Below, in pieces: positions 1-52,155 of a DNA stretch of 64,000 nt. Numbering within the stretch: the first letter of the stretch is position 1; each line of letters opens with the position of its first letter. The notes under the pieces are model-generated. The model saw only the letters and a list, made by a program, of their open reading frames with translations, searched no databases and was not told where the DNA came from. The DNA comes from a virus (Duplodnaviria; Caudoviricetes). A program made the position numbers and the translations under genes. The stretch is from IMG/VR virus record IMGVR_UViG_3300050336_000030; one strand, written 5' to 3'.

Positions 1-282
1 AAATGCGAATAACTTAGATAAACAAAAAAGAATTAAATTCTAAGATTCGTAAAGCAGAAAAAGATAGAGATGAATATTATAAGAGGGCTATTAGTGCTGA
101 GAATATTATTAGCGAATACGAAACATACAAGTCTTATAATGACGGATTAGATGATTTTGATTTAAAAGTTGCAGCAAAAGAAGAATATGAAAAATATAAA
201 GTGAAACGCAATAATTCAAGATAGAATTGCCGTTTCATTTACAAAGAATAAATAAAACAAATATAAAAGGAGATTAAAAAGT

Positions 283-933
283 ATGAAAGGTTTAAATGAT
301 TATACAAATGAAGAATTATCAATGTTAACAGATTCTGAGATTGAAAATTTAATTGACGTAGAGTGTATGAAAGCCGGAGTTCCTTTATCTATTACACCAA
401 AGCCTACACTAAAAGAAGTACCTGAAATTAAAGATCCTACAACTGAAATTTTTCAGGTAGATAATTATTATTTTACTGATAGCAAAGAAGCTAATCAATT
501 AGCTACAATGTTATCTTCGATTACATCAAGAGTAACACTTGATTATAATTATAATTCTGGTAGTAGTAATTACAAGTACTATAAGAAATACGAAACTCCT
601 ACAGACATTAAAAAGACTAAATGCTATTCAAGAGAAGAATATAATGATTTAACAGATATTTTAAAGGCAAGAAAAGACATTGAAGATTATAATAGAAATA
701 TTACAAAAGAATATGAAGATGCTGTGTCGGAAAGAAGATATATTGTTGATTCTGTATGGGATGCTATTAGTGAAGCTCAGTATGAAATGAGAAAAATCAA
801 TGAAGCTCTTGATATTTTTAAGAAATATGTTGAATTGTCAGATGGAGACGAAGAAATCGCGAAGAAGTTCTTTAGTCAAAATGAAAAGGTTTCAGAATAT
901 ATGGATGATATATTAAAGAGGTATAGTAAATAA
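283..933 (+). CDS. hypothetical phage protein (216 aa)
   Basis: ORF with AAGGAG RBS; no recognised motif. Confidence 0.8.
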   Translation: MKGLNDYTNEELSMLTDSEIENLIDVECMKAGVPLSITPKPTLKEVPEIKDPTTEIFQVDNYYFTDSKEANQLATMLSSITSRVTLDYNYNSGSSNYKYYKKYETPTDIKKTKCYSREEYNDLTDILKARKDIEDYNRNITKEYEDAVSERRYIVDSVWDAISEAQYEMRKINEALDIFKKYVELSDGDEEIAKKFFSQNEKVSEYMDDILKRYSK

Positions 934-966
934 AATCGTCGAATTTATGAAGAAAGGAGAAATATT

Positions 967-1332
967 ATGAATGAGCAAGAATTAGAAGATGAAGTATTTA
1001 AATATTATGATACTCCGTTTATAAATAAGTGTAAAGATTTGTTACGGGAAATATCGGTTACTTTAAAGAATTTTGGATTTGTTGATAAATATTTTGAATA
1101 TAAAGAAGATAAGATTACTAAAGAAGAGTTAGAAAATTACTTTTATGATACACTAATTAAATTAGATGAATATAGAAGACATGATTTAAATGAATTGTCT
1201 AAAATGTTATCATCTTCAAATTGTGGATGGTATGAATATAAGATTGGTGAAATAATACATAATCAGTTAATAAAAATTTGGTTTTTAGATGAATTTAAAG
1301 ATAGTAATATGAAACAAATGCTTGACAAGTAA
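967..1332 (+). CDS. hypothetical protein
   Basis: ORF with GAAAGGAG RBS. Confidence 0.75.
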   Translation: MNEQELEDEVFKYYDTPFINKCKDLLREISVTLKNFGFVDKYFEYKEDKITKEELENYFYDTLIKLDEYRRHDLNELSKMLSSSNCGWYEYKIGEIIHNQLIKIWFLDEFKDSNMKQMLDK

Positions 1333-1378
1333 ATTCAAATGATGTATTATAATATTGTAAGTAATAGTTATATGAAAC
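1301..1378 (+). promoter_or_regulatory. sigma-A promoter flanked by two ATAGnnATATGAAAC boxes
   Basis: TTGACA 1322-1327, 17 bp, TATTAT 1345-1350; boxes at 1301-1315 and 1364-1378. Confidence 0.75.
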
Positions 1379-1403
1379 AGTAAAATGAAAGGTGGTGAGT
1401 ACA

Positions 1404-1562
1404 ATGAGTATGGAGCAACTTGACTGGCTGGATAGAAGAGGAGTCAACAATCCTGGCGAATATAAGTTAGTACGCCAAACAAAAACGCATGTTTATTTAA
1501 GACATCGACAATATGGATATGTAATTGAAAGAAAAAAAGATATGCCAAATTGGGTATTTTAA
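1404..1562 (+). CDS. small hypothetical protein (52 aa, not in ORF track)
   Basis: manual translation MSMEQLDWLDRRG...PNWVF*, RBS AAAGGTGGTGA. Confidence 0.65.
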   Translation: MSMEQLDWLDRRGVNNPGEYKLVRQTKTHVYLRHRQYGYVIERKKDMPNWVF

Positions 1563-1582
1563 GTAGAAAGGAGAAAATTACA

Positions 1583-1936
1583 ATGAAGATTTATTCATCA
1601 GATGGAAAAGAATTTGGAAAAGATAATATGACTATGGAAGAATTGGCGGATGCTTTTAAAAAATGTAGTACATATGAGGAAGAATTAAATAGTAAAAAAG
1701 CTAAAGCTGAAGCTGAAAAGAAAGAGAGGGAACAAAAGAAAAAGATTTTATATGAGCAGATTAAATCAGAGATGGATAAAATTAATAAATTGCTAGATGA
1801 ATATAAAAAATCTGATGGCAGACCTCTTTGGGTTGGATGTGATAATGGAAAAATTTATGTAGATGAATATATTTCTTGTTCAAGTCTAAATTATGATTGG
1901 GTGAAAAATTTTAGAGAAGCATTAGAAAGTTTATAA
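1583..1936 (+). CDS. hypothetical coiled-coil protein
   Basis: ATG at 1583 behind GAAAGGAG. Confidence 0.75.
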   Translation: MKIYSSDGKEFGKDNMTMEELADAFKKCSTYEEELNSKKAKAEAEKKEREQKKKILYEQIKSEMDKINKLLDEYKKSDGRPLWVGCDNGKIYVDEYISCSSLNYDWVKNFREALESL

Positions 1937-2015
1937 ATCAAGTTTTTTATTTAGAAATTATAGTAATAGTAATGTGAAACATAAAAATAATACATATTAA
2001 AGGAGAATAAAGAAT

Positions 2016-3263: not shown

Positions 3264-3339
3264 AATTTAGTTGAGCGAAAGCTATTTCAAATAGATAATT
3301 AATTTTTAGTTGTTAAACAAAAAGGAGGATTATTGTATT

Positions 3340-4497: not shown

Positions 4498-4506
4498 TAC
4501 ATATTA

Positions 4507-4538
4507 ACTACTAAAGGGTTCAATCCCCTTTAGTAGTA
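4507..4538 (+). terminator. stem-loop after the ATPase gene
   Basis: ACTACTAAAGGG...CCCTTTAGTAGT inverted repeat. Confidence 0.55.
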
Positions 4539-13207: not shown

Positions 13208-13259
13208 TTAATAAAAGTTAAATTCTATCTGCATATTAGTAATAAAAAAGGAGAAGATT

Positions 13260-14279
13260 ATGGATTTTAAGAAATTATTAGATACAAAAGAATATGAATT
13301 TTTGAAAACAGATGAGCATTTAGGAAATAAAATTATCTTATTGGGATTAGGGGGATCACACGCTTATGGAACCAATATTGAAGGTAGTGATGTAGATATT
13401 CGTGGCATAGCTTTAAACAGCAAATCAGATTTAATCGGAATGAGTAATTTTGAACAGAGAGTAAATGAAGCAACCGATACTACTATTTATGCCTTTAATA
13501 AGATTATTGAATTATTACTTAATACTAATCCAAATACAATTGAGATGTTAGGACTTAAACCGGAGCAATACTTATATATCTCACCAATTGGTCAGGAATT
13601 ACTTGACAATAAAAAGCTGTTCTTATCAAAAAGATGTATTTATTCATTTGGAGGATATGCAAATCAGCAGCTTAGAAGATTGCAAAATGCTATCGCTAGA
13701 GATACATTAACACAGACTGAAAGAGAAACACATATTTTAAACACTATAAAAAATATGATGTTTGATATTAAATCAAGATATGAACAGTTTGAAAACGGTT
13801 CAATTAAATTGTATACGGATAAGGCAATTCAAGAAGATATGGATACAGAAATATTTATGGATATCAATTTAACTCACTATCCATTAAGAGATTATAAGAG
13901 TATCTGGTCTGAGATGAATAATGTAGTAAGAGATTATAGTAAAATTGGTAAGCGTAATAATAAGAAAGATGATTTACACCTGAATAAACACTGTATGCAT
14001 TTGATCAGATTATATATGATGTGTTTAGATATTCTTGAAAAAGAAGAAATTAATACTTATAGAGATAAAGAACATGATTTACTTATGAATATTCGCAATG
14101 GTGAATATATGCATGAAAACGGAACTATGAGACAAGAGTTTTGGGATTTATTAAATGAATATGAAAAAAGATTTGAGTACGCAAAAGAAAACACAAATCT
14201 TCCTGCTAATCCAGATTACAAGAAAGTGGAAGAATTTGTGATTAGCGTAAATGAGAGGGTGGTAAGAGGTGAATATTAG
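13260..14279 (+). CDS. Pol-beta superfamily nucleotidyltransferase (RlaP/YcgL-like)
   Basis: GGSHAYGT..SDVDIRG motif, NPN..E motif, C-terminal K..MHLIRL. Confidence 0.85.
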   Translation: MDFKKLLDTKEYEFLKTDEHLGNKIILLGLGGSHAYGTNIEGSDVDIRGIALNSKSDLIGMSNFEQRVNEATDTTIYAFNKIIELLLNTNPNTIEMLGLKPEQYLYISPIGQELLDNKKLFLSKRCIYSFGGYANQQLRRLQNAIARDTLTQTERETHILNTIKNMMFDIKSRYEQFENGSIKLYTDKAIQEDMDTEIFMDINLTHYPLRDYKSIWSEMNNVVRDYSKIGKRNNKKDDLHLNKHCMHLIRLYMMCLDILEKEEINTYRDKEHDLLMNIRNGEYMHENGTMRQEFWDLLNEYEKRFEYAKENTNLPANPDYKKVEEFVISVNERVVRGEY

Positions 14280-16504: not shown

Positions 16505-16550
16505 ATACAACATATAGTAATTGATATTATAAAGATACTATATATTGATT
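16505..16550. promoter_or_regulatory. tandem NrdR-box-like pair
   Basis: ATACAACATATAGTAA at 16505 and ATACTATATATTGATT at 16535 match acaCwAtATaTwGtg. Confidence 0.55.
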
Positions 16551-16598
16551 GAAAATGCACATAAAACACTGTTTTTATGCGGTTAGAAAGGAGATAAA

Positions 16599-17192
16599 AT
16601 GACTGATAAAGAAAGAATGGAAGAGATTAAATCAGATTGGTTTTCAAAACACAAAGCTACTTATCAAAAGTTAAGTGATGAAACATCGGTACTTACATGG
16701 AAAGAAGACGGGACATCGATGTATCATGTTAGATACGTATTCGACAGAAATAGATTATTTATAACAGGAGATATAGGAGATGCGGTATTTGTACTTACTG
16801 AGAAAGCTAACTTCAAAACCATAGCTTCTGAATATAGTATGCATTATTTATTTGGAAAACTTAGAGCAGATAATGAAGCATATGACTTTGATAGTGAGAA
16901 AGCTATTGAAACACTTAAAGATCATTTTAAAGATTATGAATTTGATAATGACGAAGACAAAAAAGAGTTTAATGAAATGGCAGAAGAAATTTATTCGTGC
17001 ATACGAGAGGAATGTAACACAGAAAATCAATGGGCTACTGCTCTAAATTGTGATTATTACGATAAATTAACTGAATACGACGTGGATTGTTGGGAGTGGA
17101 TTTATGCTATTGGCAAAGAGTTAAGCTGGCAAGCATTAGGTTGGGTAGTTGGATTGCAGATGGCTTATAAACAGTTAAAAGATTCACTATAG
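16599..17192 (+). CDS. hypothetical phage protein
   Basis: 197-aa ORF with RBS. Confidence 0.8.
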   Translation: MTDKERMEEIKSDWFSKHKATYQKLSDETSVLTWKEDGTSMYHVRYVFDRNRLFITGDIGDAVFVLTEKANFKTIASEYSMHYLFGKLRADNEAYDFDSEKAIETLKDHFKDYEFDNDEDKKEFNEMAEEIYSCIREECNTENQWATALNCDYYDKLTEYDVDCWEWIYAIGKELSWQALGWVVGLQMAYKQLKDSL

Positions 17193-17521: not shown

Positions 17522-19565
17522 ATGAATGAAACGGGATTATTGGATTGCTATGGTAATATGATACACGTTGGCGACATCTTGCTGAATCCAATGATGTGTG
17601 ACTTATGGAAAGTGGAAGAAGATGAACATGGTGAGTTTACTGCAAATCTAATTCCTAATAGTGGTTATGTTGGTCATCCTGAGAGTGCTAAATATCCATT
17701 GTGTGTCGAGGATTTAGATATGATAAACAACGTATTTGAAATTTATAAAGAAGATAAATAACGTATTATATTATGAGATCTAGGGGGATTGATGCAATGA
17801 AAGAACAAAAATTATATGTATGTGATTATTGTGGAACACAATATAAAGATAAAGATGAATGTAAAAAATGTGAGCAAGGGCACAATACACCAAAAGAAAT
17901 AACTGGTGCGAATTATATATCTTTAAAAAGTAACGGAAGTGGGTATCCTACACAAATTCACATTAAAATGAGCAACGGAGAAACAATCACATATAAGAGA
18001 TAAATTGTTAACAGAATCGGTCTTTTATATAGAAAGGAAAATATGAGAGTAGAACAAAAACCAAATTATGAGTTAATCATTAAAACTAATAAATATACTG
18101 GAAACTTTGAGAGAGAATTAATTAGTTATTCTCTAGGTACTCTGGATAATGTACAAATGGAACTAGGAGATTTCCATGGAGATTATGAAATGGATCTTTT
18201 TTGGGAAGAGGAATTTAACACCACCAGAAAAGATTACTATGATGACTATGAATTAAAAGATGAATATCTTTTTGAAACGTACCAAGATGTAGATGATTGG
18301 GAGCAAATGACTTTTTATCATATAGTTGATGGGAATTCTTTGGCGGTGCAACTTATTAAACCCTTAAATGAATATTGGGAAGAAATAGTGGTTAGAAGAA
18401 TTAAAAAGTTCTTTGATGTTCATCCGTGTAAATATACTTGGACACTTCCAGAAGACGGAATTTTGATAGAATTATATTTAATTGATAAAAATGGAAATGT
18501 AATTAAAAAATATATTTAGCAAACCAAATTGTGAATTCATTTTGAAAGGAGGCAGAAAATGAAAAAATACGAATGTGTTAATGATTTAAATGTAGACTCG
18601 GATAAAGATGGTTTAACTTATGTATGCGGAGCGAAATACACAAGTGATAGTTGCATAATCAGAAAAGAGGGATATTGTGATTTCGGTTATTTTGATAAAA
18701 ATACAAACACAATACGTTGTAGTAGTATAGATTATTTGAAAAAAGTATAAAATCAATCATTTATATTGAAAAGAGGATATATGTTTAAAGCAAAGTTTAA
18801 ATCAGGAGTATCAGAATCAGTATTATATTTTTATGATTGGATGGTCGAAATTGAAATATATGATACAAAGATAATTGACAATAGTACATTTTTCTTAGTA
18901 AAGCCTTTATATGTTATTAAAAATAAAAAGTGGATATGGTTAAACAGTAATTTATTTATTTGATAGGCTGCATTTAGTGCTTAGTGAACTCTAGGTATTA
19001 GGCGTAGATTGAAGATAAATATAACATAAAGAAAAGGAGTCTATAATGAAATTTCTAAATTTATGGAATAGGATAGGAAAACAACCAATAAAAGATACAA
19101 AGAAATTAGATGTGGTGGTAGAAACAGAAGATGGAAGATATATAGTCACAAAAATCAATTACTTAAATGGCAAATTGTATAGCTTACAGGCAGAACGAAT
19201 TACATGTAATAACTGTAAAAATTCACCTCAAAATAACAATGGATATTGTCCTCCACATACCTGTGATATATGCACATCGTTGGATGAGGAAGAGGAGTTT
19301 GGAATGTGGAACTTTAAACAAAATAAATAAAACAGTTGATTTATAAAGAAAGGAGATAATTATGGGATTAGATATAGTTAGTATTTTTAATCCACCCAAA
19401 GTAAAAGGGTTTGATTACGAAAACATTGAAAGGGATATTATGCAGTGGAAAACTGATATTGAAGAAATGTTAAAAGTTAATAAATACGACATGAATAATT
19501 TATGTGTCAACGAGGTATTAGGAACTGTGATTTGTTTAATGCAAGATAATACAATATATGAATAA
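17522..19565 (+). other. array of small hypothetical ORFs (17522-17761, 17773-18003, 18043-18519, 18559-18750, 18766-18963, 19046-19330, 19362-19565)
   Basis: co-oriented ORFs, most with a clear SD; several Cys-rich. Confidence 0.7.
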
Positions 19566-20253: not shown

Positions 20254-20651
20254 TTGAGTAGTACAAATAGAAGCAATGCAAGAGAAGAACATGTGGCTGA
20301 TTATTATGTTACGCCGATAGAAGATATTGAATTATTTTTAAAAGAGTTTCAAAAGGTAGAGTGTATAGATTGGGTAAATAATACAATACTTGATCCGTGT
20401 GCCGGAGGAAATGAAGAGATACCAGAATATGAAACATATCATCCCATGAGTTATCCAACTGCAATACAAAATATTGTTTTGTATACCACAAGAGAATTGG
20501 ATTTACTGATAAGAAAGATAAAGATACAGGAAAATTGATTCTTGATAAAGATGGTAAGCCAAAGAAAGGTTCAACTGACAGCATTGAATACTGTCACATG
20601 ATTTGGAAGAAAGGGGTATATCCTGAGTTTACTCAGTTAAAAGTAATATAA
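20254..20651 (+). pseudogene. DNA methyltransferase remnant (internal deletion plus frameshift)
   Basis: DYYVTP and ILDPCAGG in one frame, CFVYHKRIGFT...DSIEYCHMIW in another; NPPF region absent. Confidence 0.65.
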
Positions 20652-20679
20652 AATATCAATTTTGTTCACATTTTAGGAT

Positions 20680-21233: not shown

Positions 21234-23632
21234 ATGGGAAAATCGGTATATATAGTGTTAGTTATGATAGATAGCACGGTTGAAGTTGACTCAGTATGGT
21301 GGAATAAAGTCAAGGCGAAGAAAAGAAAATCAGATATAGATGAAAATTCAGATGGAGCCGCATTGATTATTGATAAATGGGTAAATCCCAAAATTCTATT
21401 GAATTCTAAAGAATATACACAATCTAGAATTACAAAAGAAAAATTTTTAGATAGTCCGTTAATTTTTGACAATAGAGTTTTAAAGCTATTAAATTAAAAG
21501 GGGAATGTTATGACTGTCAAAGAAGCAAATAATATAATTACTGAAATTGAATACATAAGAAATGAGTTAAGTATATATACGGGAGAACACAAGGCAGAGT
21601 TAGAAAAAAGTTGTGATTTTTATACTGCTTTAAAAGAATCTTTCGACTACTTAAATGATTATAAAAAGATATTAGAAAAGAAGATTTTAGATGCAACATT
21701 AGATATATGAAATTATAGTTTTATACTATTAGAAAGGAAATTGAAAATTGAAATTAGAGTATGTTAATGATAGAAAAGGTAAACTTGAGTCTCATGAAAT
21801 TCGTATGATTGAAGAAGATGTAGATGATATATTAAACATGTTTATTGATGGATATGGAGAAGATTTGTATGAGGCGTTAATTGAATATACTAAAAACATA
21901 TTATTATTAAAAAACAAATTAGATAATCATATTGAAGAACTATTATCTGGTAATATTAAATTTATTGATAGAAGAAAAAATGAGGTTACGGTAGAGATAA
22001 TAGACAATTATTATACCGGAGAATTAACAAAAAACAATATAGATGATGTTTTGAAAAAATATAAAGAACATATACAATCAAGGTAAAATTCCACATTTAT
22101 GCAGATTTTAAGAAAGAAGGTGTAACATGAGATTTTTCTATGAGAACGGGTATGGAGATACAGGATATTTTTCTGAAAAAGATATTATAAAAGCTGTTTA
22201 TACTGCATGGAATATTGATGCTGATTTATGGTTATTAAATGATGGATTAAGAAAACTTGATCCATATAAATTTACATCAGAACAAGCTAAAATTGTATTT
22301 GCTTCACCAGAAGGATATTTATTTAATAGTGATGTATTAAAAGAATTTGGTTATTACATGAATGAAGATAATGAGATAAGAAAAATTAGTACAGATGAAG
22401 TTGTTAAATATGGTTGGTCAGAAGTTAAGCAACTAATATAGATGAAATCAGGGATTTATTATGAATGGAAAAGGAGTGGGTAATATGTATAGTGAACAAT
22501 TAAAAAGAGTAGCAAATGAACTAGAAAAATTACGATTAGGTATTTATCAAGAAACTGAATCAGAAGAATTTCACCAAGAAGTTGACGATGAGTTATTTTC
22601 TTTACAATCGCAAGTAAGGAGTGTTGCAGAAAAAGTAAGTTGGTATGAGTAAAATAACTCTTTTATCAAGAAAGGAAGTGAAAAATTTGATTTATTCAAT
22701 AATTTACATAATTATAGCATTGACTACAACCGGATTATTATATTGGTTTTTATATGATAATAACGATAGCGAGATAATAAGTATATTTGGAGGAATTGTA
22801 TTTCCTTTAACAATTATTATTCTTTTGTTTAGTTTACCAGTGTTATGTGTCAATAAAATAAAACAACGTAAAAGTTGAGTTTCATCGAGAAAGGAGTCAA
22901 GATGAAAATATATCAAATACATAAGTCAGGTGGTTGTTATGAAGATCATTATGATTATATAGAGTTTTCATATTTTGATTACAATAAAGCGGTAGAAAAA
23001 AAGGAAAAATTAGAAGCACAAGAACTAATTGAAAGAAAATGTAACGAGTGTCCATTGGAATATTGTAATGATGAGTATTGTAACGAAGATTGTGCAACTT
23101 GTTTTGAAGAAAAAAGAATGGCTGATGCAATGAAATATTGCGATAAGTGCGATATTAAATTTACTACATATGAAGATGATGAAGAACCGACACTTGGATG
23201 CGTAAATAAGGTATCTCACTGGGATGATAACTATTTTAGAATTGAAGAAGTTGATGTAATAGAATAAACAAATCAATGGTTCTATGATCTTACTTGAAAG
23301 GAGAAAATAAGGTGGAGCGATTAACTCAAAAGCAAAGTAATGGATATGACTTAATTAGAATGAATGGAGATTGGTGTAATAATTATTGTGAAAAACAAGC
23401 TATAGAAACATGTAGAGATTGTACAATATTTGAAGCAATCCAAAAGTTAGCTAAATACGAAGACTTAGAAGAAAAACTATATAGTTTATGTAGAAACGAT
23501 GACGAAAACATTGTAGAAAACATCATTAATATCTTTATTGAAACAATATTCCAGGGACAAAAACATGAAGGATTCGAAATCTTAACTAATGAAGACGCAG
23601 CTCTGTATAATGAATGGTTAAAGACAATATAG
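21234..23632 (+). other. array of small hypothetical ORFs (21234-21497, 21510-21710, 21748-22086, 22127-22441, 22461-22652, 22645-22878 membrane protein, 22875-23267, 23294-23632)
   Basis: co-oriented ORFs with SDs, mostly separated by the 18-bp palindrome. Confidence 0.7.
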
Positions 23633-23727
23633 AATGTGATTTTTATTAAGAGATAGAAATATGAAACGATACTAAAATAATCCTGCCTAAACAGATTTAT
23701 ATAAATATAACACATAAGGAGGTAAAT

Positions 23728-26290: not shown

Positions 26291-27235
26291 TTGGGATTTA
26301 ATGTATTAAGTTTATGTGATGGAATGTCATGTGGACAGATAGCCTTAAAAGAACTTGGAATTGAAATAACTAATTATTTTGCAAGTGAAATAGAACCAAA
26401 TGCAATTAAAACAACATTAGATAATTTTCCTAATACAAAGCAATTGGGAAATGTTATGGAATACATATTAGAAATAAAAGATAATAACAAAATTATTTTA
26501 AACGAAGATAAGTTGCGAATACTTCCTAAAATTGATTTAGTAATTTTCGGTTCGCCTTGCAGGTCACTATCTAAGGCAACAGCCGGAAGAAAAGATTATA
26601 ATAACGGATTAGATGGAGTATCGTGGTTATTTTATCCGTGCAATGCCATTCTTCAATGGATAAAGAAACATAACAATCCAGAAGTTGAATTTATGGTTGA
26701 GAATGTAGATAGTAATAATAAAGAAGATTTAAATGAGATAAGCACATTATTAGGAGTTCAACCTGTATTGATTGATAGTAATTTATTTTCTGCTCAAGAT
26801 AGAAAGAGAAACTATTGGACTAATATTGATATTCCTGAATTACCAAAGGAAAATAAATTGGTTTTACAAGATATACTCGATGAAGAAGTAGATGAAAAAT
26901 ATTATTATTATCAAAGTTTTGATTTTAAAGGAGAAGATCATAAAGTAGCAGCAATATTACATATTAACGGACACGACATATTAAAACGTGTTAATAGCAA
27001 ATACTTCAAAGCTCCAACACTAACTTCGTGCAGAGGAGGTAATACACAAAAGAAAGTTTACGACAATGGAAGATGTAGAAAGCTTACACCTAATGAGTAT
27101 AGAAAACTTCAAACAATTCCTAACTGGTATATTATGAATATTGCAAATAGTAATATTTATAATATTTGTGGTGATGGATGGACGATTGAGGTAATCAAAC
27201 ATATTTTTAAAGGATTAAAAGTATACAATATATAG
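26291..27235 (+). CDS. DNA cytosine-5 methyltransferase
   Basis: SLCDGMSCG, GSPC, ENV, QDRKRNYW motifs. Confidence 0.9.
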   Translation: MGFNVLSLCDGMSCGQIALKELGIEITNYFASEIEPNAIKTTLDNFPNTKQLGNVMEYILEIKDNNKIILNEDKLRILPKIDLVIFGSPCRSLSKATAGRKDYNNGLDGVSWLFYPCNAILQWIKKHNNPEVEFMVENVDSNNKEDLNEISTLLGVQPVLIDSNLFSAQDRKRNYWTNIDIPELPKENKLVLQDILDEEVDEKYYYYQSFDFKGEDHKVAAILHINGHDILKRVNSKYFKAPTLTSCRGGNTQKKVYDNGRCRKLTPNEYRKLQTIPNWYIMNIANSNIYNICGDGWTIEVIKHIFKGLKVYNI

Positions 27236-27269
27236 TATATAAGCATTGTATAAACACAATATATTGATT
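27223..27269. promoter_or_regulatory. tandem NrdR-box-like pair
   Basis: ATACAATATATAGTAT at 27223 and ACACAATATATTGATT at 27254, 31 bp apart. Confidence 0.65.
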
Positions 27270-27317
27270 AAAAATCTTGATGAAACAGCTATTTTATACA
27301 GAGAGGAAGGAGTGTTT

Positions 27318-27614
27318 ATGACAATCGAAGAAAGATATATGAAATCTTCAGATAGAGGCGAATTCAAGTATGAAGTATTAGAAGCAGATGAATGGACTGG
27401 AAGAATCGCATTAGAAGAGTGTATTTATAACGGTAAATCAGTGGGTACAATAAGAAATAATTGTGGTGAATATGAAGTAGAAATAGACAATCTTATAAAT
27501 GATCCTGTTTATATTTTTGAAACTAGATCATCTCGAAAATTAGCTAGACAATTATTAGAGCGAATTATTAATAACGATATTTCTAATAATGGAAAGAACA
27601 ATAAATATAGATAA
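27318..27614 (+). CDS. hypothetical protein
   Basis: ATG behind AAGGAG. Confidence 0.7.
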   Translation: MTIEERYMKSSDRGEFKYEVLEADEWTGRIALEECIYNGKSVGTIRNNCGEYEVEIDNLINDPVYIFETRSSRKLARQLLERIINNDISNNGKNNKYR

Positions 27615-27644
27615 AAGTATATTTCGATAATGAAAGGAGTTTGT

Positions 27645-30556: not shown

Positions 30557-31543
30557 ATGATAGCTAAAGCAACATTAAAACGGGCTTTACCTGAGATAGA
30601 AGAAGAATATGCAACAGCAAGAGATTTGTTTGATGAAGCATGGCATAGAAAATATAATGGAGTCCAAACTGATTTTGATGATAAATATTGTCATTTGGCT
30701 GTGAAATTAATTCAAACATTAGGATATCTTATTGATGCTGCGGATGAAGATTTATAGGAAAGGAGTAGCTAATGTTTAGAGCTAGAAAGTTAAAATTTCA
30801 TCACGGAAGAATGAATAAAGACGGAATACATATAGAAATGCTAAAAGATATATCTATGTTTACGGAGTACATGATGGCATTATGCACAGAATCTAATAAA
30901 ACAGTTAAAACGCAATTTATTAATGTTAAAGTAGATGCATACGACAATTGGATTATTAAAATAAAGACTAAAAATAAAGATTATTTCAATATAATTATTC
31001 AACGGTTTATTAAACATTTTGGAGAAGTAATTACTGAAATTGAGTTCTGAATAAATTTAAGGTATCTATCAAAACTTTAGAAAGGAAAAATTAATAATGA
31101 AAGACGAAAAACAGCGTATGTACGCATATTATGAAAATATGATGAAAAATAAATGTTATACAAGAGGTATAGATGATAGCAAGACTAAAAGCAAAGTATT
31201 AGCTACCAAAAGAGAAAATTATTTTAATCCAGATGATTGTTATTTTGCTTATGTCAGTGAATTACCATTTGGAACTTGCTATGTTGATTCAGAATAATTT
31301 GATCAAAGATACAATTTATTAAGAAAGGAGAATCAGATGAACGAAGATAGATTGATTGGTTCATTCGTTATTAATAACAATTCATATTTTGAGTATCCAG
31401 ACGGGACTAAAATTTATTTAAACGAAATTATTATTGATGCTTATAAGAGTAAATTAAAAGACTATTGTAATAATTGCAGTTATATGATGAATGATTGTGA
31501 TATTAATGGAAAGTGTAAAAAATTCAGCCCACTATATAAATGA
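30557..31543 (+). other. small hypothetical ORFs (30557-30757, 30772-31050, 31097-31297, 31337-31543)
   Basis: co-oriented ORFs with SDs. Confidence 0.65.
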
Positions 31544-31573: not shown

Positions 31574-32785
31574 ATGAAAGCAATTAGAACAGAAATACAT
31601 ATACTTAATCGGGGTCACCCTATGTGGAAATCCTGTGATGAATTATGTTTTCAATCAAAAAATATGTATAACCTGTGTAATTACACGATAAGACAAGAGT
31701 TTATATCTAGTGGTAAAGTGATGAAATATGGTGACCTGAATAAGATTCTTAAAAAAACAGATACGTTTAAAGAACTTGGATCAAATTCCGCACAAATGGT
31801 TACTCAAATATTATGTAAATCGTGGAAATCATTTCTTGTAGCGGTTAAAGATTACGCAAAAAATCCTGATAAATATTTAGGAAAACCAAGAATACCAGGA
31901 TATAAAAAGAAAGATGGTAGATTTATTTGTACACTAACAAATTGTCAAACAAGAATAATTGATGGCTATTTACATTTTGGATTTAAACGATTGCATCCAT
32001 ATAATAAAATGTTTAAAACAAAAGTTGATGGATATCATTTATCAACTAGAATAGTTCCAAGTGGCGGTTGTTACGTACTAGAAATAGTTTATGAAAAAGA
32101 AATAGAACAACTAGACTTAAACAAAAATAATATTGCATCGATAGATTTAGGAGTAAATAACTTTGTAACAATGGTAAATAACATAGGCATAAAACCTATT
32201 GTTATTAATGGCAGAGGTATTAAATCTTATAATCAATACTGGAATAAACAAATTGCAAAATATCGAAGCGTTCTAAAGAAAACAAATAAACTCGATTGGA
32301 GCAAACGACTTCAAAGGATGACGGATAAACGTAATTTCAAGATGGATTACTTCACGCATTGTGCTTCTAAGTATTTAGTTTGGTATTGTATTAACAATGA
32401 TATTGGAACGATTGTTGTTGGTAAGAATAATAGATGGAAACAAGAAAGTAAAATGTCTACTACAAACAATCAGAAGTTCATTCAAATACCATATGATTTG
32501 TTTATTAAAAAGTTGAAATACAAGTGTGAAGAAATAGGTATAAACATCATTGAAAATGAAGAAGGATATACTTCTGGAACATCTTTCTTAGACAATGAAG
32601 AACCTATTAAATCAAATTACAATAAGTCAAGAAGAATACATAGAGGATTATTTGAGAGCAACAATGGTATTAAAATAAACGCAGATTGTAATGGTGCATA
32701 TCAAATAATGCGGAAAGTATTCTCAAATGTAAACGCAAATGAGATAGTGGATGTACATTTACATCCGGTAATTATAAATCTTTAA
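31574..32785 (+). CDS. tnpB: solo TnpB RNA-guided nuclease (rearranged RuvC, no Zn finger)
   Basis: SIDLGVNN (RuvC-I), IVVG without E, EEGYTS, NADCNGAYQI (RuvC-III). Confidence 0.88.
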   Translation: MKAIRTEIHILNRGHPMWKSCDELCFQSKNMYNLCNYTIRQEFISSGKVMKYGDLNKILKKTDTFKELGSNSAQMVTQILCKSWKSFLVAVKDYAKNPDKYLGKPRIPGYKKKDGRFICTLTNCQTRIIDGYLHFGFKRLHPYNKMFKTKVDGYHLSTRIVPSGGCYVLEIVYEKEIEQLDLNKNNIASIDLGVNNFVTMVNNIGIKPIVINGRGIKSYNQYWNKQIAKYRSVLKKTNKLDWSKRLQRMTDKRNFKMDYFTHCASKYLVWYCINNDIGTIVVGKNNRWKQESKMSTTNNQKFIQIPYDLFIKKLKYKCEEIGINIIENEEGYTSGTSFLDNEEPIKSNYNKSRRIHRGLFESNNGIKINADCNGAYQIMRKVFSNVNANEIVDVHLHPVIINL

Positions 32786-32848
32786 TTACAAAGTTTAAAA
32801 AACAACATAAATGAGTCGTTTTATCTTGATTTAAGAAAGGAGCAAAGA

Positions 32849-36205: not shown

Positions 36206-36931
36206 TACATATTAGAGATTTTTATGATACAGATAATGAGGAAAAATATTTATATGAAGAAAGACATTCATTAATTGAAGTAAATAGATGCAAGCACTGT
36301 GGCTGTCCGTTGATAAAAATGAATGAGTGTGGTGAAGCCTGGGGTAGCGATTACATAGAAGAACTTTGGATTTGTCCGGTCTGTGATTAAAGGAGGTATT
36401 ACATATGGGAGTATTGGTTATTTTAAGTGCCATTGCTTTAGTTGTTATAGTATGTGCTATAGCTGCAAGCATTGGAGATGATGAACTAGAAAGAGTTAAT
36501 CAAATCAATAAAGCTACATTGGAAGATTGTTTATTCAATAATATATTAGGATATAGTGCAGTTATTGAAAATGGTAAAGTAGTGGATTTTATTAACGAAA
36601 GAGATGAATTTATCAAATAACTATACACAATATATAGTGGTTAAAGAAATAATAAACACAATATATAGATATAAAATATGCATGAAACTAACGTTTTATC
36701 AAGATAAGAAAGGATATTATTAATATGAACAATAATTATTGGTGTACACATAAAGAATTACAGTCAATAGATGATATAAATAGATGCACATTAGGAAATA
36801 ATGGGTTTTACGATGTAACATCTTATTATAGATGCATGTGTTGTGGAAGAAAAATTAAAAAGCACGAACATCAAGAAGGTGATGAAAATGGAATTACAAA
36901 ATCAATAATAACAATTGAAGTAATAAGTTAA
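36202..36931 (+). other. small ORFs (36202-36390, 36405-36620 membrane protein, 36725-36931)
   Basis: ORFs with SDs. Confidence 0.6.
36625..36671. promoter_or_regulatory. tandem NrdR-box-like pair
   Basis: ACACAATATATAGTGG at 36625 and ACACAATATATAGATA at 36656, 31 bp apart. Confidence 0.7.
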
Positions 36932-39738: not shown

Positions 39739-39811
39739 AGCTGAAAAAGGGACTTGAACCCTCGACCTACGCATTACGAGTGCGTCGCTCTACCATCTGA
39801 GCTATTTCAGC
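39739..39811 (-). tRNA. tRNA-Thr(CGT), CCA not encoded
   Basis: reverse complement GCTGAAATAGCTCAGATGGTAGAGCGACGCACTCGTAATGCGTAGGTCGAGGGTTCAAGTCCCTTTTTCAGCT folds as a cloverleaf. Confidence 0.93.
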
Positions 39812-40188: not shown

Positions 40189-41406
40189 ATGCCAGCAAAA
40201 AGAAGAAAAAATGGTGAAGGTTCATGGGGAGAAAAAAAGATTAAAGGAGTGGTTTATAAATATTTTAGAAAACAATATAACGATGTCGATAAATACTTTT
40301 ATGGAAAAACTGAAAAAGAAATCAAAGAAAAAATTAAAGCATATGAAAACGATAACTCAATTGTAATTGACAAAGATATTAAGAAACAAATATTTGGAGA
40401 CTACTTATTAAATTGGTTAAAGACTATTAAACAACCTGCTATTAAACGTAGAACATATGATAGTTACGAAGATATAATTAACGTACAAATCATAAACTAT
40501 AAAGGATTTGATATATCTGGTAAACAAATAGCAACATTAAGCGATGACATGTTTCAAAAATATTATAATGATTTAGCTTCTAAATATTCAAGGGCAACTA
40601 TAAGAAAAAATTACGTAATAGTCAAACAATGTCTAGACTATGCCCTTGATAAGAAACATATACTAGAAAACTATTTAGAAAAAGTAACTATACCATCTGA
40701 GGATCTTGTAAAAGTTAAGAAGAAAGAAATCCAATTTCTAACTGAATCAGATATGAATAAATTGTACGAAGAATCTAAACGAGTTAACACAGAGGGATTT
40801 AATTTTGGTGGTAAGATAGGAGAGCCCGTATATGGAATTAATGCATATGCAGTAGTTCTTATAATGTACACTGGAATGAGAATTGGCGAAGCAACAGCAT
40901 TAAAATGGGCAGATATAGATTTAGAAAATAAGTTTTTATACGTTAAAAAAAGTATTTCTTCTATAAAAAATCGAGACAAAAAAACCGAAGATGATCCTAA
41001 GTATATTAAAGAGGAAACAAGTGTTAAAACTAAATCTGGATATAGAGCCATACCATTGTCAGAACGTGCTATTGAAATGATTAATATATTAAGTGAGAAA
41101 AATCCAAACCATAAACCAAATGATAATGTATTCATTAATAAAAATGGGAATATGGTTAATCGTGCCAATGTTACAAGAACATTAAAAGCTATGCTTACCA
41201 GAGCTGAATGTGAAGTATCGGAATGTGGATTACATGCACTTCGTCATACTTTTGGTAGTTATTTAATATTACACAAAATTGATATTAAAGTGGTGTCTCA
41301 AATATTAGGACATAAAGATGTTACCGTCACATACAATATTTATGTTCATTTAATTGAACAGCAAATGATTGAAGCTGCTAATGTATTTGATAAAATCAAA
41401 ATATAA
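40189..41406 (+). CDS. int: tyrosine integrase
   Basis: RKNGEGS N-terminus, TGMRIGE, HALRHT, LGH, YNIY. Confidence 0.95.
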   Translation: MPAKRRKNGEGSWGEKKIKGVVYKYFRKQYNDVDKYFYGKTEKEIKEKIKAYENDNSIVIDKDIKKQIFGDYLLNWLKTIKQPAIKRRTYDSYEDIINVQIINYKGFDISGKQIATLSDDMFQKYYNDLASKYSRATIRKNYVIVKQCLDYALDKKHILENYLEKVTIPSEDLVKVKKKEIQFLTESDMNKLYEESKRVNTEGFNFGGKIGEPVYGINAYAVVLIMYTGMRIGEATALKWADIDLENKFLYVKKSISSIKNRDKKTEDDPKYIKEETSVKTKSGYRAIPLSERAIEMINILSEKNPNHKPNDNVFINKNGNMVNRANVTRTLKAMLTRAECEVSECGLHALRHTFGSYLILHKIDIKVVSQILGHKDVTVTYNIYVHLIEQQMIEAANVFDKIKI

Positions 41407-43095: not shown

Positions 43096-43170
43096 TAAAT
43101 TTCCTTTCTAAATTAAAAAAGAGTAGCCAACAATAAAGTAAGCTACTCTCCATAAAATATCTTTTCTATA

Positions 43171-43800
43171 TTAATAATTCTTAAGTAACTCTTTCAAAGC
43201 AATGGATCCTAATTTACCATTAGAACTCCATCCATTTTTATTTCTAAACAAATTAACTGCATCAGTAGTTCTCTGTCCCCAATCACCATCAACAACTAAC
43301 TTAACTTTTAAATCATTACCAAGATATTTATTCAATGCATTTTGAATCATCTTAGTAACAAAGGCATTATTATTTGCTTTTGAGTATTCATCTTCGGTAG
43401 TACTAACACCTTTAATCTGAAAATGAGGCGAGTCAGGAGAGGAAGACCAATTTGCACCTGCTTCAAAGCCGTATTTAGTCATAATAGATATAATCTTTAA
43501 AGTTTCTTTATCTTTAGAATTCCATATGGCTGTCATCTTACCATTTACACTTCTTTGTGGTATAACATCAACCGCATTTCTTAAGGTATGTATAGAATTT
43601 AAAGTCCATGTTATTTTATTACCAGGAGCTGTTCTGCCTTGGGCATATAAATAATTTTGTCTAGTTTGAGGTCTATAGGTTTCAACTAATAATGGATTAA
43701 CCCCTTTTTCTTTTATCTCTGCAAAAGCCAAGTCTAATAAAGTAGCACATAACGAATTAAGTTCTTTTTTATCTTTACAAGCTTCAGTTATATTTGACAT
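43171..43800 (-). CDS. endolysin, M15 peptidase plus peptidoglycan-binding domain
   Basis: ETYR...Q..LYAQGRT, SIH...AVD, DSPHFQ, VDGDWG. Confidence 0.9.
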   Translation of the reverse strand: MSNITEACKDKKELNSLCATLLDLAFAEIKEKGVNPLLVETYRPQTRQNYLYAQGRTAPGNKITWTLNSIHTLRNAVDVIPQRSVNGKMTAIWNSKDKETLKIISIMTKYGFEAGANWSSSPDSPHFQIKGVSTTEDEYSKANNNAFVTKMIQNALNKYLGNDLKVKLVVDGDWGQRTTDAVNLFRNKNGWSSNGKLGSIALKELLKNY

Positions 43801-45130: not shown

Positions 45131-45319
45131 ATAAAAATGCATTAAAAAAGAGCCATTTAAGGCTCTATTATTTTTCATTTGTATTAACTACCTAATTAAT
45201 ATTAAACTGTCTTTAAACCTTGATTACACATCTAAAATCATTGATTATATGACTAAAACCATTATGCATAAAACATCTCTTTTATCTTGAGCTGCGTCGC
45301 ATTTTTTACCAATTGTGTA

Positions 45320-48490: not shown

Positions 48491-49034
48491 TTATTCTCAC
48501 CTCGATTTCTTCCATATCCTTTAACATTTGTGTCACTAATTTAGCCACTTCTAATGTCTTATTATACTTATCTGTAATTTGAGCCAATTTTTGAGTAAAT
48601 TCAAAATTATATTGTTCCATTTTTACTTCATGCAATTCTATTAAAGATAATTGAGAATCAGTTAAATAATCCGAAATCTTTAAATGTGATGAAATAAGAA
48701 TAGTAGTAGTACCAGACTTAATTAAAATTCCGTTTGTATCAACGATTTCAATCCAAACAGTTATATCCCCGACACTTTCAGTCATCTTTATTGGAATAGG
48801 AATATTATATTGAAGATAACCTGACCGACACTCATTAAGTTTTGTTGCCAATATAATATCGCCCTGGTTTATACTATTAATCCAATTAAAATTAATTGAA
48901 TAATTTTCAAGCGAATAATTGTTATAAACTTGCGGTAATAATAATGTGAGAGATTCACCTGATTCACCAACATAAATCTCATTTGTTATAGTCTTTCGCA
49001 ATGATTTATCATCATTCATTATTATGGTAATCAT
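48477..49034 (-). CDS. BppU-like baseplate/adaptor protein
   Basis: ATG behind GAAAGGAGG; tail context. Confidence 0.6.
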   Translation of the reverse strand: MITIIMNDDKSLRKTITNEIYVGESGESLTLLLPQVYNNYSLENYSINFNWINSINQGDIILATKLNECRSGYLQYNIPIPIKMTESVGDITVWIEIVDTNGILIKSGTTTILISSHLKISDYLTDSQLSLIELHEVKMEQYNFEFTQKLAQITDKYNKTLEVAKLVTQMLKDMEEIEVRINERN

Positions 49035-49184
49035 GAATACCTCCTTTCTAAAAATAAGCATAAAAATAACACGAATTATTAGCATAAAAGTACAATCAAT
49101 ACTAGTAATTCGTGTTATAAAACTCTGTAAATACAATATTAAGTTGTTAAATTTCTTGATAAAACACCGAATTTATGCTATATA

Positions 49185-51512
49185 TCAAACTTTATACCAA
49201 TTAGTTCCATCGCTCACCAATGTTAATGTTGAATTTGGAGTAGCAGAAAAATTAGATGCTAATTTAATATTTCCGGTATTATTAACTGTCAATGTTCCAT
49301 CAAAAATCATAGTGATTTTATATCCACTTGGTTTAATACTTATATTAGTAATTGCTGTTGTTCCTGTGATGTGAAAAACTTCTCCAGTACTAGGCGTAAT
49401 TGTAGCCGCAGAAGCAATAGCCGTAGCAATATTACCCAAATTATTCAAGTAAACAATATCACCCGTTGATCCATGATTTAAAATAAATTTATCACTACTC
49501 TGGAATCCTAACATATTGTTATTAAGGATGCTTATATTATCAAATGATCCTGAATAAATTTCTATAACTCCTCCATTTCTTAATGTTCCACTAGTAAATA
49601 TATTCTCGTCAAATTGCAAATTAGTCGCTCCTGCTGAAATTGAACCTATTACAATATCATAAACACCAGTAGAATTTAAAGTATTATTATTCTTGAATTT
49701 ATTCCCAATAAAACTAATGTTACTAAAATTTGAATTTAATGAAACTGCTTGTGCTTGAGTTAGTTCTATAGTGCATGAATTAAAAGACACTTCACTAACA
49801 TTTGCGCTTATGTCTATTCCAATAACTCCGGTTCTTATTTCACAATTGTTAAATTTAAATCCACCGAAAGTGGTACCTGTTCCAAGGATAGTTACTGCTC
49901 TTAATTTATTATCATCAAAATAACAATTATTAAAATAGTTTCCAATATTTTTGTTTGCACCATCTAATACTAATGCATAATTAGTTCCTTGTACATGGCA
50001 GTCGCTAAACCATAATCCATCACTACATAAAATATGATATCCAACATTTACAGGGTAACCTTCTCTGAGTGGTAAAGCATCACATTGAGAAAATTTACAA
50101 CTTACAACCATTTTTACGGAAGTATTCTCGTTATATTTTACCGTATAGTAAGAATTTCCATTTAGCCCAACCGTATGGCTACACCAGATATTCCTAAAAT
50201 CTATTCTTGCACTTGCTTCAAGAGTTAAACAATCATACCCTGCATCAATATGTAAATCCTCAAACAATCCATCTTGACAGTCTAATACTCTTAAGTGAGA
50301 TCCAGACGTCATTTCATTTATTTTTTGACCTATGAACATATGAAACATGCCACAACCATGAGCGCCACTAAGATTAAATAAAACTGTATCGTAGTCAGTA
50401 GTAAATGCAGCTAAACTTCTTACTATCATCGAAACCCATCTACCTGCACCATATAAATAAACATTAGGATTCAACACTTTTATAGTTGATGAAACTAAAT
50501 ATTTACCAGCAGGGAACCAAACAATTCCTCCTCCATGTGTTCCTACATAATTAACTGCATTCTGAATTGCCATAGTATCATCAATTATACCATCCCCTAT
50601 TGCACCAAAATCTTTAACACTAATAACTAAATTATTAACTCTTTTTGCAATTTCTTGTAATGCTGAATTTGCATCATCAGTCGTGTAATAATTTCCTGTG
50701 TCTATGATAGGTAATTGAGCGGCATTAGCGATATTTCCACCTGAACTAGAAATACATATCCAGTTAGCATTATCGGTGTTATATGATGGTGAAACCCCTT
50801 GACATGGAACGATATTCTTATATGAGCTATAAGTTCCGTTGTATTGTAATGTAACTTTATTGTTTACCACGTATGGTTTACTTGGATTATATACTTCATA
50901 TAAATTTCTTGCATTTTCATTATTAATCCTCGTATTCTCTTTTGAAACACGATCCGATTCAGCGTTACTAACTGAAGTTTCAAGATTAACCATGTTAGTA
51001 ATTTCAGTTCTTGCGTCTTGCGTTGCCGAATTGGTATTATCTGTAGCAACTATCGCATTTGCTGTAGCTGTATTAACTTCTTCTGTCAAATCACCTAGAG
51101 TATTGAGCGCATTTTGAAATGCTATAAAATCATTTGAAGATTCAATTGCGTTTGCTATATTATTATCATCAACATTAATGTTAAAAGTTTTTGATGTCCT
51201 CCATTTTGTTCCATTAGTAATTTGAAAATTACATTCGACTTCTCCTTTTACCGCATATACTTGATTGGTCAAATCAAAAACAAAATAATTATCAGAAATC
51301 GTAGAATGAATATATCCATCAGTATTGTCTTTTTTTTTAAAATAAAAATAAGCCATTTCTGAACTAGGCGTTAATATTTCTGAATCTTGAACGATTTGTA
51401 ATTTGAATCCATTTCCAGAATCATCTACAGAACCATGATAATGTTTAAATAACGTGTTGTTATTTAAATTCCATTGTATCACTGGATAACTTTTACTAAA
51501 ATCCAATGCCAT
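49185..51512 (-). CDS. tailspike/depolymerase: BppU N-terminus plus pectate-lyase-like beta-helix
   Basis: SVKDFGAIGDG..DDT.AIQ.A, FPAGKY, Asn-rich repeats. Confidence 0.85.
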   Translation of the reverse strand: MALDFSKSYPVIQWNLNNNTLFKHYHGSVDDSGNGFKLQIVQDSEILTPSSEMAYFYFKKKDNTDGYIHSTISDNYFVFDLTNQVYAVKGEVECNFQITNGTKWRTSKTFNINVDDNNIANAIESSNDFIAFQNALNTLGDLTEEVNTATANAIVATDNTNSATQDARTEITNMVNLETSVSNAESDRVSKENTRINNENARNLYEVYNPSKPYVVNNKVTLQYNGTYSSYKNIVPCQGVSPSYNTDNANWICISSSGGNIANAAQLPIIDTGNYYTTDDANSALQEIAKRVNNLVISVKDFGAIGDGIIDDTMAIQNAVNYVGTHGGGIVWFPAGKYLVSSTIKVLNPNVYLYGAGRWVSMIVRSLAAFTTDYDTVLFNLSGAHGCGMFHMFIGQKINEMTSGSHLRVLDCQDGLFEDLHIDAGYDCLTLEASARIDFRNIWCSHTVGLNGNSYYTVKYNENTSVKMVVSCKFSQCDALPLREGYPVNVGYHILCSDGLWFSDCHVQGTNYALVLDGANKNIGNYFNNCYFDDNKLRAVTILGTGTTFGGFKFNNCEIRTGVIGIDISANVSEVSFNSCTIELTQAQAVSLNSNFSNISFIGNKFKNNNTLNSTGVYDIVIGSISAGATNLQFDENIFTSGTLRNGGVIEIYSGSFDNISILNNNMLGFQSSDKFILNHGSTGDIVYLNNLGNIATAIASAATITPSTGEVFHITGTTAITNISIKPSGYKITMIFDGTLTVNNTGNIKLASNFSATPNSTLTLVSDGTNWYKV

Positions 51513-51567
51513 TACTTTACCTCCTTTATGTAAAAATATATAAGCGTAATATCATAAAAGTGTTAAT

Positions 51568-51975
51568 TTATTTAGACTGTATAGTTACTTCAGTATCATC
51601 TTCAATCATTGCCTCTAAGATGAATAGGAGATTAGGTTCTATATCTCTACCATCTAAATCAGAAAGCTTAACCTTTAAGATATCAATCGTATTTTCACAA
51701 TTTAGCAAGTCGTTTCTTTCTTGATTAAATGTTTTAATATGAGCTGGAGCAATTCTATATTGATTATTATCAAATATTTTTACCTTTCCAGATTCATCTT
51801 TAATTGCATATTGTTCAACTAATTTGTTTTCACACTCGTAATATAGCTTTAAAAGTGGTTCAATCTTTTTCATGTTCTTAGAAAGGTTCCAGCCCGCCTT
51901 AACCGGAAGTTTAACTTTCATTATTTCTCCGAGTGCCTGAGCTGTATTTAATACTTCACTGTTTTTCATTTCCAT
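51568..51975 (-). CDS. DUF1617-like tail-associated protein
   Basis: LPVK..W.L.KN, LVEQYA.KDE.G pattern. Confidence 0.6.
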   Translation of the reverse strand: MEMKNSEVLNTAQALGEIMKVKLPVKAGWNLSKNMKKIEPLLKLYYECENKLVEQYAIKDESGKVKIFDNNQYRIAPAHIKTFNQERNDLLNCENTIDILKVKLSDLDGRDIEPNLLFILEAMIEDDTEVTIQSK

Positions 51976-52155
51976 CTATAAAATCTTCCTTTCATTTAAT
52001 GTAAAACACTACATATTGAGCTCTATATATTAATAATAATTAAATATAACTATATATAGTGTTTTTTATTTTTTTATTATTGACAAACTTATTAATAAGT
52101 GCTACCATAAAATGGTAACTATAGTAAATATTCACCATATAAGGAGGGCATAATT

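Follow-up and report, generated by a model that had tools for sequence, protein, structure and literature searches.

A 28-bp DNA dyad with a central spacer of strictly 6 bp, TCnnnATAAAA-N6-TTTTATnnnGA, recurs between the genes of a 64,000-nucleotide stretch of phage DNA (the window) belonging to the complete 139,975-bp virus record IMGVR_UViG_3300050336_000030 (Duplodnaviria; Caudoviricetes), which has direct terminal repeats. The dyad is shared across the family of SPbeta-like phages, by Bacillus phages as well as by this distant member with a guanine-plus-cytosine (GC) content of 29%. In two related clades the boundaries of homologous blocks coincide with the sites, and the 6-bp centres are kept in a fixed order. 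The reading that we favour, with a probability of roughly 0.5, is that the dyad is an address-coded joint for the slot-by-slot exchange of gene modules, in which the common arms would bind a protein and the spacer would limit exchange to the matching site. An initial annotation of the window, made from its letters alone, had noticed the 18-bp palindrome at gene boundaries and proposed an integron-like system that captures or shuffles single-gene cassettes.

The basic pattern, ATAAAA-N6-TTTTAT, was searched with mismatches counted over both arms together. It was about 10-fold enriched in intergenic DNA at the 6-base spacer only, with about 50 copies in the phage genome and 21-25 in the window. 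When at most one mismatch was allowed, 22 matches were found in the window at N6 versus 2-10 at spacers 0-12, and 33 in the intergenic DNA of the whole genome versus 1-8 at every other spacer from 0 to 14; the coding DNA of the genome gave 8 matches at N6 and 3-15 at other spacers, and thus no N6 excess. With at most two mismatches, the intergenic counts were 66 at N6 versus 9-22 at other spacers. An independent weight matrix (28 bp, symmetrised, trained on 341 sites from other phages only) was then applied to the window and returned 29 matches at N6 versus 5-8 at other spacers (at least 8 bits), 21 sites versus 1-4 at spacers 3-9 (at least 10 bits), and 16 versus 0-3 at the same spacers (12 bits). 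The N6-specific boundary enrichment that the initial annotation expected was therefore confirmed by the spacer comparison as well as by the matrix. All 24 of its listed positions read as the letters given there. By the matrix, 17 of them score at least 10 bits and four are weaker but plausible (21707, 18011, 31302, and 27611), whereas three, 18523 (-0.2 bits), 33987 (1.9 bits), and 36931 (-7.4 bits), are not members.

The sites follow a stop codon and precede the next ribosome-binding site, and some come directly after promoter/operator modules. They are spread over the whole early arm and parts of the late arm, on both strands and amid many sigma-A-type promoters, and occur as well after the last genes of operons and beside reverse-oriented genes. 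About 45% of the same-strand junctions with gaps of 25-80 nt hold the motif, versus essentially none of the tight or overlapping junctions, in agreement with the earlier remark that sites are dense in arrays of small open reading frames (ORFs) and missing between coupled replication genes. The stop codon of the upstream gene occupies left-arm positions 2-4 in 21 of 62 sites of the genome and in 105 of 366 sites of the pooled set. The stop codon is thus often inside the left arm, as had been stated, but only at the frequency of about one third that chance predicts for genes running up to a TAA-containing site. A reading of the dyad as stop-codon context was rejected on this in-frame share and on the presence of sites far from any stop, and a promoter reading was rejected as no conserved -35 or -10 element surrounds the site.

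The anatomy of the site was examined in a pooled set of about 360 oriented sites from the window's genome, IMG/VR loci, and Spbetavirus genomes. T and C are enriched at positions -5/-4 and are mirrored by G and A at +21/+22, so that the full site has an 11-6-11 layout with the 18-bp palindrome as its core. The upstream T/C signal persists where the DNA upstream is non-coding. The conserved positions extend to -5 and +22, about 8 of the 11 positions in each arm are conserved, and the half-site centres are about one helical turn apart. Single substitutions, read in the orientation of transcription, were mirror images between the arms (left arm, G 19 and C 5; right arm, G 7 and C 23), which argues for a dyad at the DNA level since either arm of an RNA stem should accept G but not C. 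Compensatory double changes in the arms showed no excess over other spacers, and the predicted RNA hairpins were marginal (0 to -4.2 kcal/mol), mostly no better than those of shuffled sequences. The site works as double-stranded DNA and not as an RNA hairpin. Its likeness to tyrosine-recombinase cores, pointed out in the initial annotation, holds in that the DNA is dyad-symmetric with the 11-6-11 layout of Xer/dif-type sites.

An exact-pattern scan of IMG/VR revealed 93 loci, many of them on contigs of 120-230 kb with strong N6-specific enrichment. The early region of SPbetaL6 held 18 matches at N6 versus 0-3 at other spacers, BUCT082 held 38 versus 1-7, and a 140-kb provirus held 53 versus 6 for the control pattern; four more distant large phages encoding DnaE had 3-8 matches at N6 versus 1-7 for the control pattern. 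The dyad was not described in the literature searched, in which reviews and papers on SPbeta mention SPBRE, att sites, and SOS boxes. The window's phage is taken to be a distant SPbeta-like phage because it has genes and the order of its replication genes in common with the Bacillus phage BUCT082 (Spbetavirus). The order of the replication module is the same in this genome and in Spbetavirus, and the genes common to it and BUCT082, all outside the window, encode a YonO-type RNA polymerase, an MrpR-type repressor, a YomM-like recombinase, and structural proteins.

Next, the early regions of a Spbetavirus quartet (SPbetaL6, L2, L1, and BUCT082) were compared. As a result, 59 of 182 homology breakpoints fell within -10 to +28 of a site versus 3.5 expected, with homology blocks starting at -7 to +1, the left edge of the site, and ending at +17 to +30, its right edge. 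A breakpoint was present at 66-70% of the site-bearing junctions versus 19-32% of site-less junctions with the same gap size. The identical 18-mer, spacer included, recurred beside different neighbours. A strict search for simple insertions and deletions gave only two events. In related phages, gene gains, losses, and replacements therefore do break at the sites, as had been predicted.

The spacers were followed in the quartet and in a clade of gut-metagenome phages found via the DHHA1 gene of the window. Identical spacers were collinear in 43 of 43 steps in the former and in 554 of 569 steps in the latter. Between consecutive shared sites, 10 of 43 intervals in the quartet and 18 of 310 in the gut clade had less than 10% of their 11-mers in common, and most of the remaining intervals were partly replaced. 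Where only one distal flank was homologous, arms and spacer were still identical in 57-97% of the pairs, and the proximal flank on the replaced side was unrelated (0.31-0.53 identity). As the core stays identical beside an unrelated near flank, it is the invariant joint, and the crossovers must lie inside it. Where both flanks were homologous in the gut clade, the spacer was 0.99 identical versus 0.92-0.95 for adjacent DNA, which, among pairs that are not independent, hints at constraint on the spacer. One slot between two shared sites is occupied by Gad1 in some SPbeta-like phages and by Gad2 in another; these are annotated anti-Gabija genes without detectable similarity to each other, and the sites may thus be a route by which SPbeta-like phages trade counter-defence genes. 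The capture or shuffling of cassettes proposed earlier is not what this pattern describes, since the spacers are site-specific, conserved, and in fixed order, which points to exchange between matching sites of related phages.

In the favoured reading, the arms common to all sites would probably be bound by two inverted protomers of a family-conserved protein, and the sites would be joints between gene modules, each with its own 6-bp centre. When related phages meet, exchange would occur within the core that two sites of the same centre have in common, by which the module on one side would be replaced while the joint remained unchanged and the gene order was kept. The 6-bp centre would serve as an address and keep the various sites within a single genome from recombining with one another. 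The alternative of a dimeric DNA-binding protein, offered in the initial annotation, fits the data and forms part of this reading. A site-specific tyrosine-type recombinase is favoured over short-homology recombination, because common arms with unique, ordered centres are the design of recombinase targets, and because identical arms everywhere would be a liability for a purely homology-driven mechanism.

Searching with the PF00589 profile revealed three tyrosine-recombinase genes in the genome, one Xer-like, one Int-like, and one YomM-like. The best solved relatives were XerH, XerC-like, XerA, and XerD proteins, whereas IntI4 gave only a match over a 45-residue tail (E 4e-5). The YomM-like candidate, whose gene belongs to the structural module (L111:1291-2337 (-), genome 10835-11881), retains the HxxR, H, and Y signature, is common to BUCT082 and the site-rich provirus, and was not found in the four site-poor large phages; it thus accompanies high site density in 3 of 3 site-rich genomes and in 0 of 4 site-poor ones. 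It is conceivable, though we would not call it probable, that SPbeta-like phages possess a natural, family-wide system of recombinase-mediated cassette exchange, in which a conserved tyrosine recombinase, with the YomM-like protein as the leading candidate, acts on about 50 sites and recombines only those with the same centre. If so, co-infecting or resident relatives would swap accessory genes, including anti-defence genes, slot by slot with the gene order undisturbed. The Xer-like recombinase (L109:1060-2046 (+), genome 59248-60234) also has an intact catalytic signature and has XerH as its best solved relative (E 7.5e-16), but was rejected as the dyad binder because no homologue was found in the Spbetavirus genomes at E 1e-8 or in BUCT082 at E 1e-4. 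An HNH endonuclease gene lies about 750 bp upstream of the Xer-like gene, with a 75-amino-acid ORF between them.

Several points weigh against the address-coded joint. One deletion junction in the quartet unites sites with different spacers, with its crossover in the right arm, and classical spacer-dependent recombination would not yield such a junction. The pattern of exchange stems from relatives, so that the window's sites are only presumed to behave likewise. A close relative of the window's phage was not found: an exact look-up of a 158-amino-acid protein returned only the same genome, from a single sample, a megablast search of a phage database gave one short match, and no spacer was common to the window's phage and any fetched locus, relatives of 50-72% identity included. 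One relative region (L119) showed no enrichment. The sites cluster in variable accessory regions, so their association with breakpoints could be partly regional. The candidate enzymes are leads only. The correlation with the YomM-like protein compares three genomes with four, is confounded by phylogeny, and counts incomplete records as its four negatives. The arms of tyrosine-recombinase targets usually have more than 8 conserved positions. Finally, a fixed place just before the ribosome-binding site would equally suit a regulatory role.

The regulatory elements of the early arm were compared with the dyad. The early-arm promoters are ordinary TTGACA-17-TATAAT promoters bracketed by an asymmetric repeat, RATAGTTATATGAAAC, which is distinct from the dyad and often occurs once upstream of the -35 and once after the -10 element. 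The genome holds about 45 copies of its 8-mer core, TATGAAAC, and some two dozen of these are in intergenic DNA of the early arm. The repeat probably serves the phage's MrpR-type master repressor as its operator and corresponds to SPBRE, the 15-bp operator of the tyrosine-recombinase-fold repressor MrpR (YopR) in SPbeta (PMC10516654). SPBRE resembles the dyad in being a repeated SPbeta-like element, and has a binder of the tyrosine-recombinase fold; unlike the dyad, it is asymmetric, located at about 10-20 promoters, and diverged between the window's phage and Bacillus phages. In BUCT082 the operator reads AATAAAAATAAAATT, abuts the -35 element, and holds the arm hexamer twice in tandem. The operator has therefore diverged between the window's phage and BUCT082 and the dyad has not, which argues that the dyad is read by another, more conserved protein. 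The dyad was rejected as the operator of the master repressor, because the promoter-flanking repeats differ from it in both phages; the MrpR family is also present in a site-poor genome and does not track site density. The window's phage encodes, outside the window, a 336-amino-acid MrpR-family protein (Pfam MrpR_N_CB; L011:7720-8730 (+)) and a 113-amino-acid paralogue with the N-terminal core-binding domain only (L010:12448-12789 (+)).

A doubtful but considerable alternative is that the dyad is a repeated operator of a dimeric DNA-binding regulator, acting as a silencer or a transcription roadblock like the stoperators of phage L5, and that its link with mosaic junctions is passive, arising from microhomology of identical cores at gene boundaries. 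Dyad symmetry at the DNA level with half-sites one helical turn apart, a place ahead of the ribosome-binding site or just past promoter/operator modules, and a majority of sites on the early arm would all suit such a regulator. It is harder to reconcile with the different, diverged repeat at the promoters, with the sites that follow last operon genes, adjoin reverse-oriented genes, or lie in the late arm, and with chromatin affinity purification sequencing (ChAP-seq) of the SPbeta master repressor, which gave only ten peaks, all at SPBRE promoters (PMC10516654). Nor would a pure operator account for spacers that remain identical, with conservation no lower than that of the flanks, after replacement of the neighbour on either side. 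We consider it improbable that the site is a passive linker with another or no present function, at which phage or host proteins exchange DNA by short-homology recombination followed by selection for intact genes. The phage does encode an AAA_24 protein and a RecJ-like exonuclease, the unlike-spacer deletion did use the shared right arm, repeats of T4-type phages act in this manner (PMC2839356), and short-homology exchange likewise predicts collinear shared spacers and a surviving core. However, the shared core of 18 bp, which the outer positions extend to at most 28 bp, would be little for an exchange driven by homology, and the passive linker leaves unexplained both why the arms are conserved between Bacillus phages and a 29% GC phage and why all sites share arms that would invite ectopic deletions.

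The remaining alternatives received much less credence. Hijacked host XerC/XerD-type recombinases, with the sites acting like the pdif sites that delimit modules of Acinetobacter plasmids, are quite unlikely. In its 11-6-11 layout and its A-rich inner arms the dyad is similar to dif, difH, and difSL (PMC5357621), and the conservation of Xer proteins across Firmicutes could explain that of the arms, but the two arms of the dyad do not differ from each other as the XerC and XerD arms of dif do, and dozens of host Xer targets per genome would risk rearrangement. An intercistronic RNA hairpin for processing, stability, or translational coupling, the other alternative of the initial annotation, is very unlikely on the substitution and folding data above. 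It would suit the location between stop codon and ribosome-binding site, and RNA processing occurs on the same early arm, which carries twister and pistol self-cleaving ribozymes; however, covariation is missing, changes that would break pairs (right-arm C) outnumber wobble-compatible ones, the dyad extends outward on either side and even into coding sequence upstream, and sites are present where no co-oriented transcript is expected. A strict integron with attC-like sites, an IntI-type integrase, and an attI platform can be given next to no weight. Inverted-repeat sites do bracket single genes here, but apart from the weak IntI4 tail match the recombinases belong to the Xer-like, Int-like, and YomM-like kinds, each site measures 18-28 bp with conserved arm sequence and without attC-type structure or covariation, and in place of a single co-oriented array behind a platform promoter the sites are scattered across about 80 kb and both strands, their spacers fixed and in order. 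The initial interpretation accordingly survives in its tyrosine-recombinase-type layout and in the breakpoints at sites, and fails as integron-like, since neither an IntI-type integrase nor an attI or Pc platform nor a folded site of the attC kind was found.

Phage genomes are mosaic, and how they trade unrelated genes cleanly where one gene meets the next is for the most part without explanation. SPbeta, a well-studied model phage, contains a defined DNA site that matches the borders of modules to the base pair and bears what looks like an address. There is an engineered parallel: heterospecific lox and FRT sites have common arms and different spacers, only sites with the same spacer recombine, and segments are swapped without scrambling their order. 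Unlike these man-made sites with their known recombinases, a natural counterpart in SPbeta-like phages is suggested by comparative patterns only. Should a recombinase take part, the system might also be put to use for multi-site cassette exchange. Brown et al. reportedly described in 1997 the stoperators of mycobacteriophage L5 as short sites bound by protein, present by the dozen in small gaps between genes and often over stop codons; they are reportedly asymmetric, oriented with transcription, and of the same sequence as the promoter operator, whereas the SPbeta-like site is a dyad that differs from the promoter-associated repeat. The attC sites of integrons are likewise imperfect inverted repeats bounding single-gene cassettes, but their length of 57-141 bp, their recombination as folded single strands by IntI at one platform, and the conservation of structure over sequence were not found in the dyad. 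Promoter early stem-loops (PeSLs) of T4-type phages are, like the dyad, short conserved repeats at gene junctions of variable regions where insertions, deletions, and replacements break; they are composite promoter and terminator signals of some tens of bases that exchange by homologous recombination (PMC2839356, PMC4122927). In contrast, the 28-bp dyad has no promoter or terminator features, and its unique centres are kept in order. Core sites of the Xer/dif type have two 11-bp inverted arms, a 6-bp central region, and, in difH and difSL, A-rich inner arms as in the dyad, and pdif sites delimit mobile modules (PMC5357621). The dyad has the layout of that class (two arms of about 11 bp in inverted orientation around a centre of 6-8 bp), but differs in its identical arms, which are not specific for XerC and XerD, in its roughly 50 copies per genome, in having about 8 of 11 arm positions conserved, and in recombinases that are candidates only.

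The sites of the window are listed below. The match within gene 13260-14279 probably arose by chance, because matches in coding DNA show no N6 excess.

Dyad sites and operator-like repeat cores in the window. Positions of dyad sites are those of the 18-bp core, and scores are those of the independent 28-bp matrix.
Element	Position	Context	Score (bits)
Dyad core	221..238	upstream of gene 283-933	11.6
Dyad core	1933..1950	stop codon of gene ending 1936 within left arm	12.9
Dyad core	13211..13228	just past operator-like repeat, ahead of gene 13260-14279; missed by the initial annotation	13.8
Motif match, probably by chance	13609..13626	coding, within gene 13260-14279	13.0
Dyad core, perfect arms	16561..16578	ahead of gene 16599-17192	18.2
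Weak dyad site	18011..18028		8.8
Dyad core	18747..18764	left arm holds stop codon	10.9
Dyad core	19327..19344	left arm holds stop codon	12.3
Dyad core	20648..20665		10.5
Dyad core, borderline/weak but plausible	21707..21724	left arm holds stop codon	9.9
Dyad core	22083..22100	left arm holds stop codon	11.5
Dyad core	22442..22459	stop codon immediately before	10.4
Dyad core	22649..22666	left arm holds stop codon of ORF 22461-22652; missed by the initial annotation	15.3
Dyad core	22868..22885	ahead of gene starting 22902	13.2
Dyad core	23629..23646	left arm holds stop codon; operator-like repeat follows	14.3
Dyad core	27280..27297	preceded by duplicated 9-mer repeat	19.0
Weak dyad site	27611..27628		7.3
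Weak dyad site	31302..31319		8.3
Dyad core	32807..32824	just past TnpB gene 31574-32785	14.3
Dyad core	36682..36699	preceded by same duplicated 9-mer as at 27280	16.0
Dyad core	43152..43169	after M15-peptidase endolysin gene 43171-43800 (Pfam), minus strand	14.3
Dyad core, perfect arms	45268..45285	after 528-amino-acid gene with weak GDSL match (Pfam), minus strand	19.1
Dyad core	49159..49176	after pectate-lyase-type tailspike gene 49185-51512 (Pfam), minus strand	13.0
Dyad core	51554..51571	between 51568-51975 and 49185-51512, minus strand; missed by the initial annotation	12.5
Dyad core	51978..51995	divergent junction 51975/52156	12.6
8-mer core TATGAAAC (starts)	1308, 1371, 13090, 13200, 20174, 23660, 26219, 29240, 29351, 34711, 35468, 37504	more elsewhere in genome	

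The 9-mer ACAATATAT is duplicated 31 bp apart directly upstream of sites 27280 and 36682 (27225-27264 and 36627-36666, respectively), and a stretch related to it near 16535 precedes site 16561.

The genes of the window run on the plus strand to about 41.5 kb and on the minus strand beyond. Those for replication and metabolism encode a DnaE-type polymerase, a DnaB-like helicase, an AAA_24 protein, which we take to be Sak4-type and whose gene adjoins that of the RecJ-like exonuclease, NrdD, and ThyX; two DNA methylases, two TnpB proteins, an M15 endolysin, and a pectate-lyase-type tailspike are encoded as well. The two TnpB genes (OrfB_IS605 / Cas12f-like TNB; 31574-32785 (+) and 55942-57045 (-)) have no TnpA gene visible beside either, and the former is directly followed by a dyad site. 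The early arm ends with a tyrosine integrase gene (40189-41406 (+)), and a tRNA gene (39739-39811 (-)) lies just upstream of it; the two probably form the integration module of the phage, which would thus use a tyrosine integrase where SPbeta uses the serine recombinase SprA. A PemK/MazF-type toxin gene (58754-59284 (+)) has no obvious antitoxin gene adjoining. The final 1,008 bases of the window (62993-64000) are absent from the genome contig and show no match to the contig start, in a record that has direct terminal repeats.

Outside the window, a 918-amino-acid homologue of the single-chain YonO RNA polymerase of SPbeta is encoded at L009:12642-15398 (-) and matches BUCT082 by tblastn at E 2e-103; as a query against the fetched loci it gave no match, not even in an SPbeta-like provirus, and was thus uninformative. 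In SPbeta, YonO transcribes late genes only (PMC5467207). Two ribozymes, both at the Rfam gathering level and on the sense strand of the early arm, were detected outside the window: a type-P5 twister at genome 45217-45276 (L010:5217-5276 (+), 51.8 bits) and a pistol ribozyme at genome 53442-53515 (L010:13442-13515 (+), 59.6 bits).

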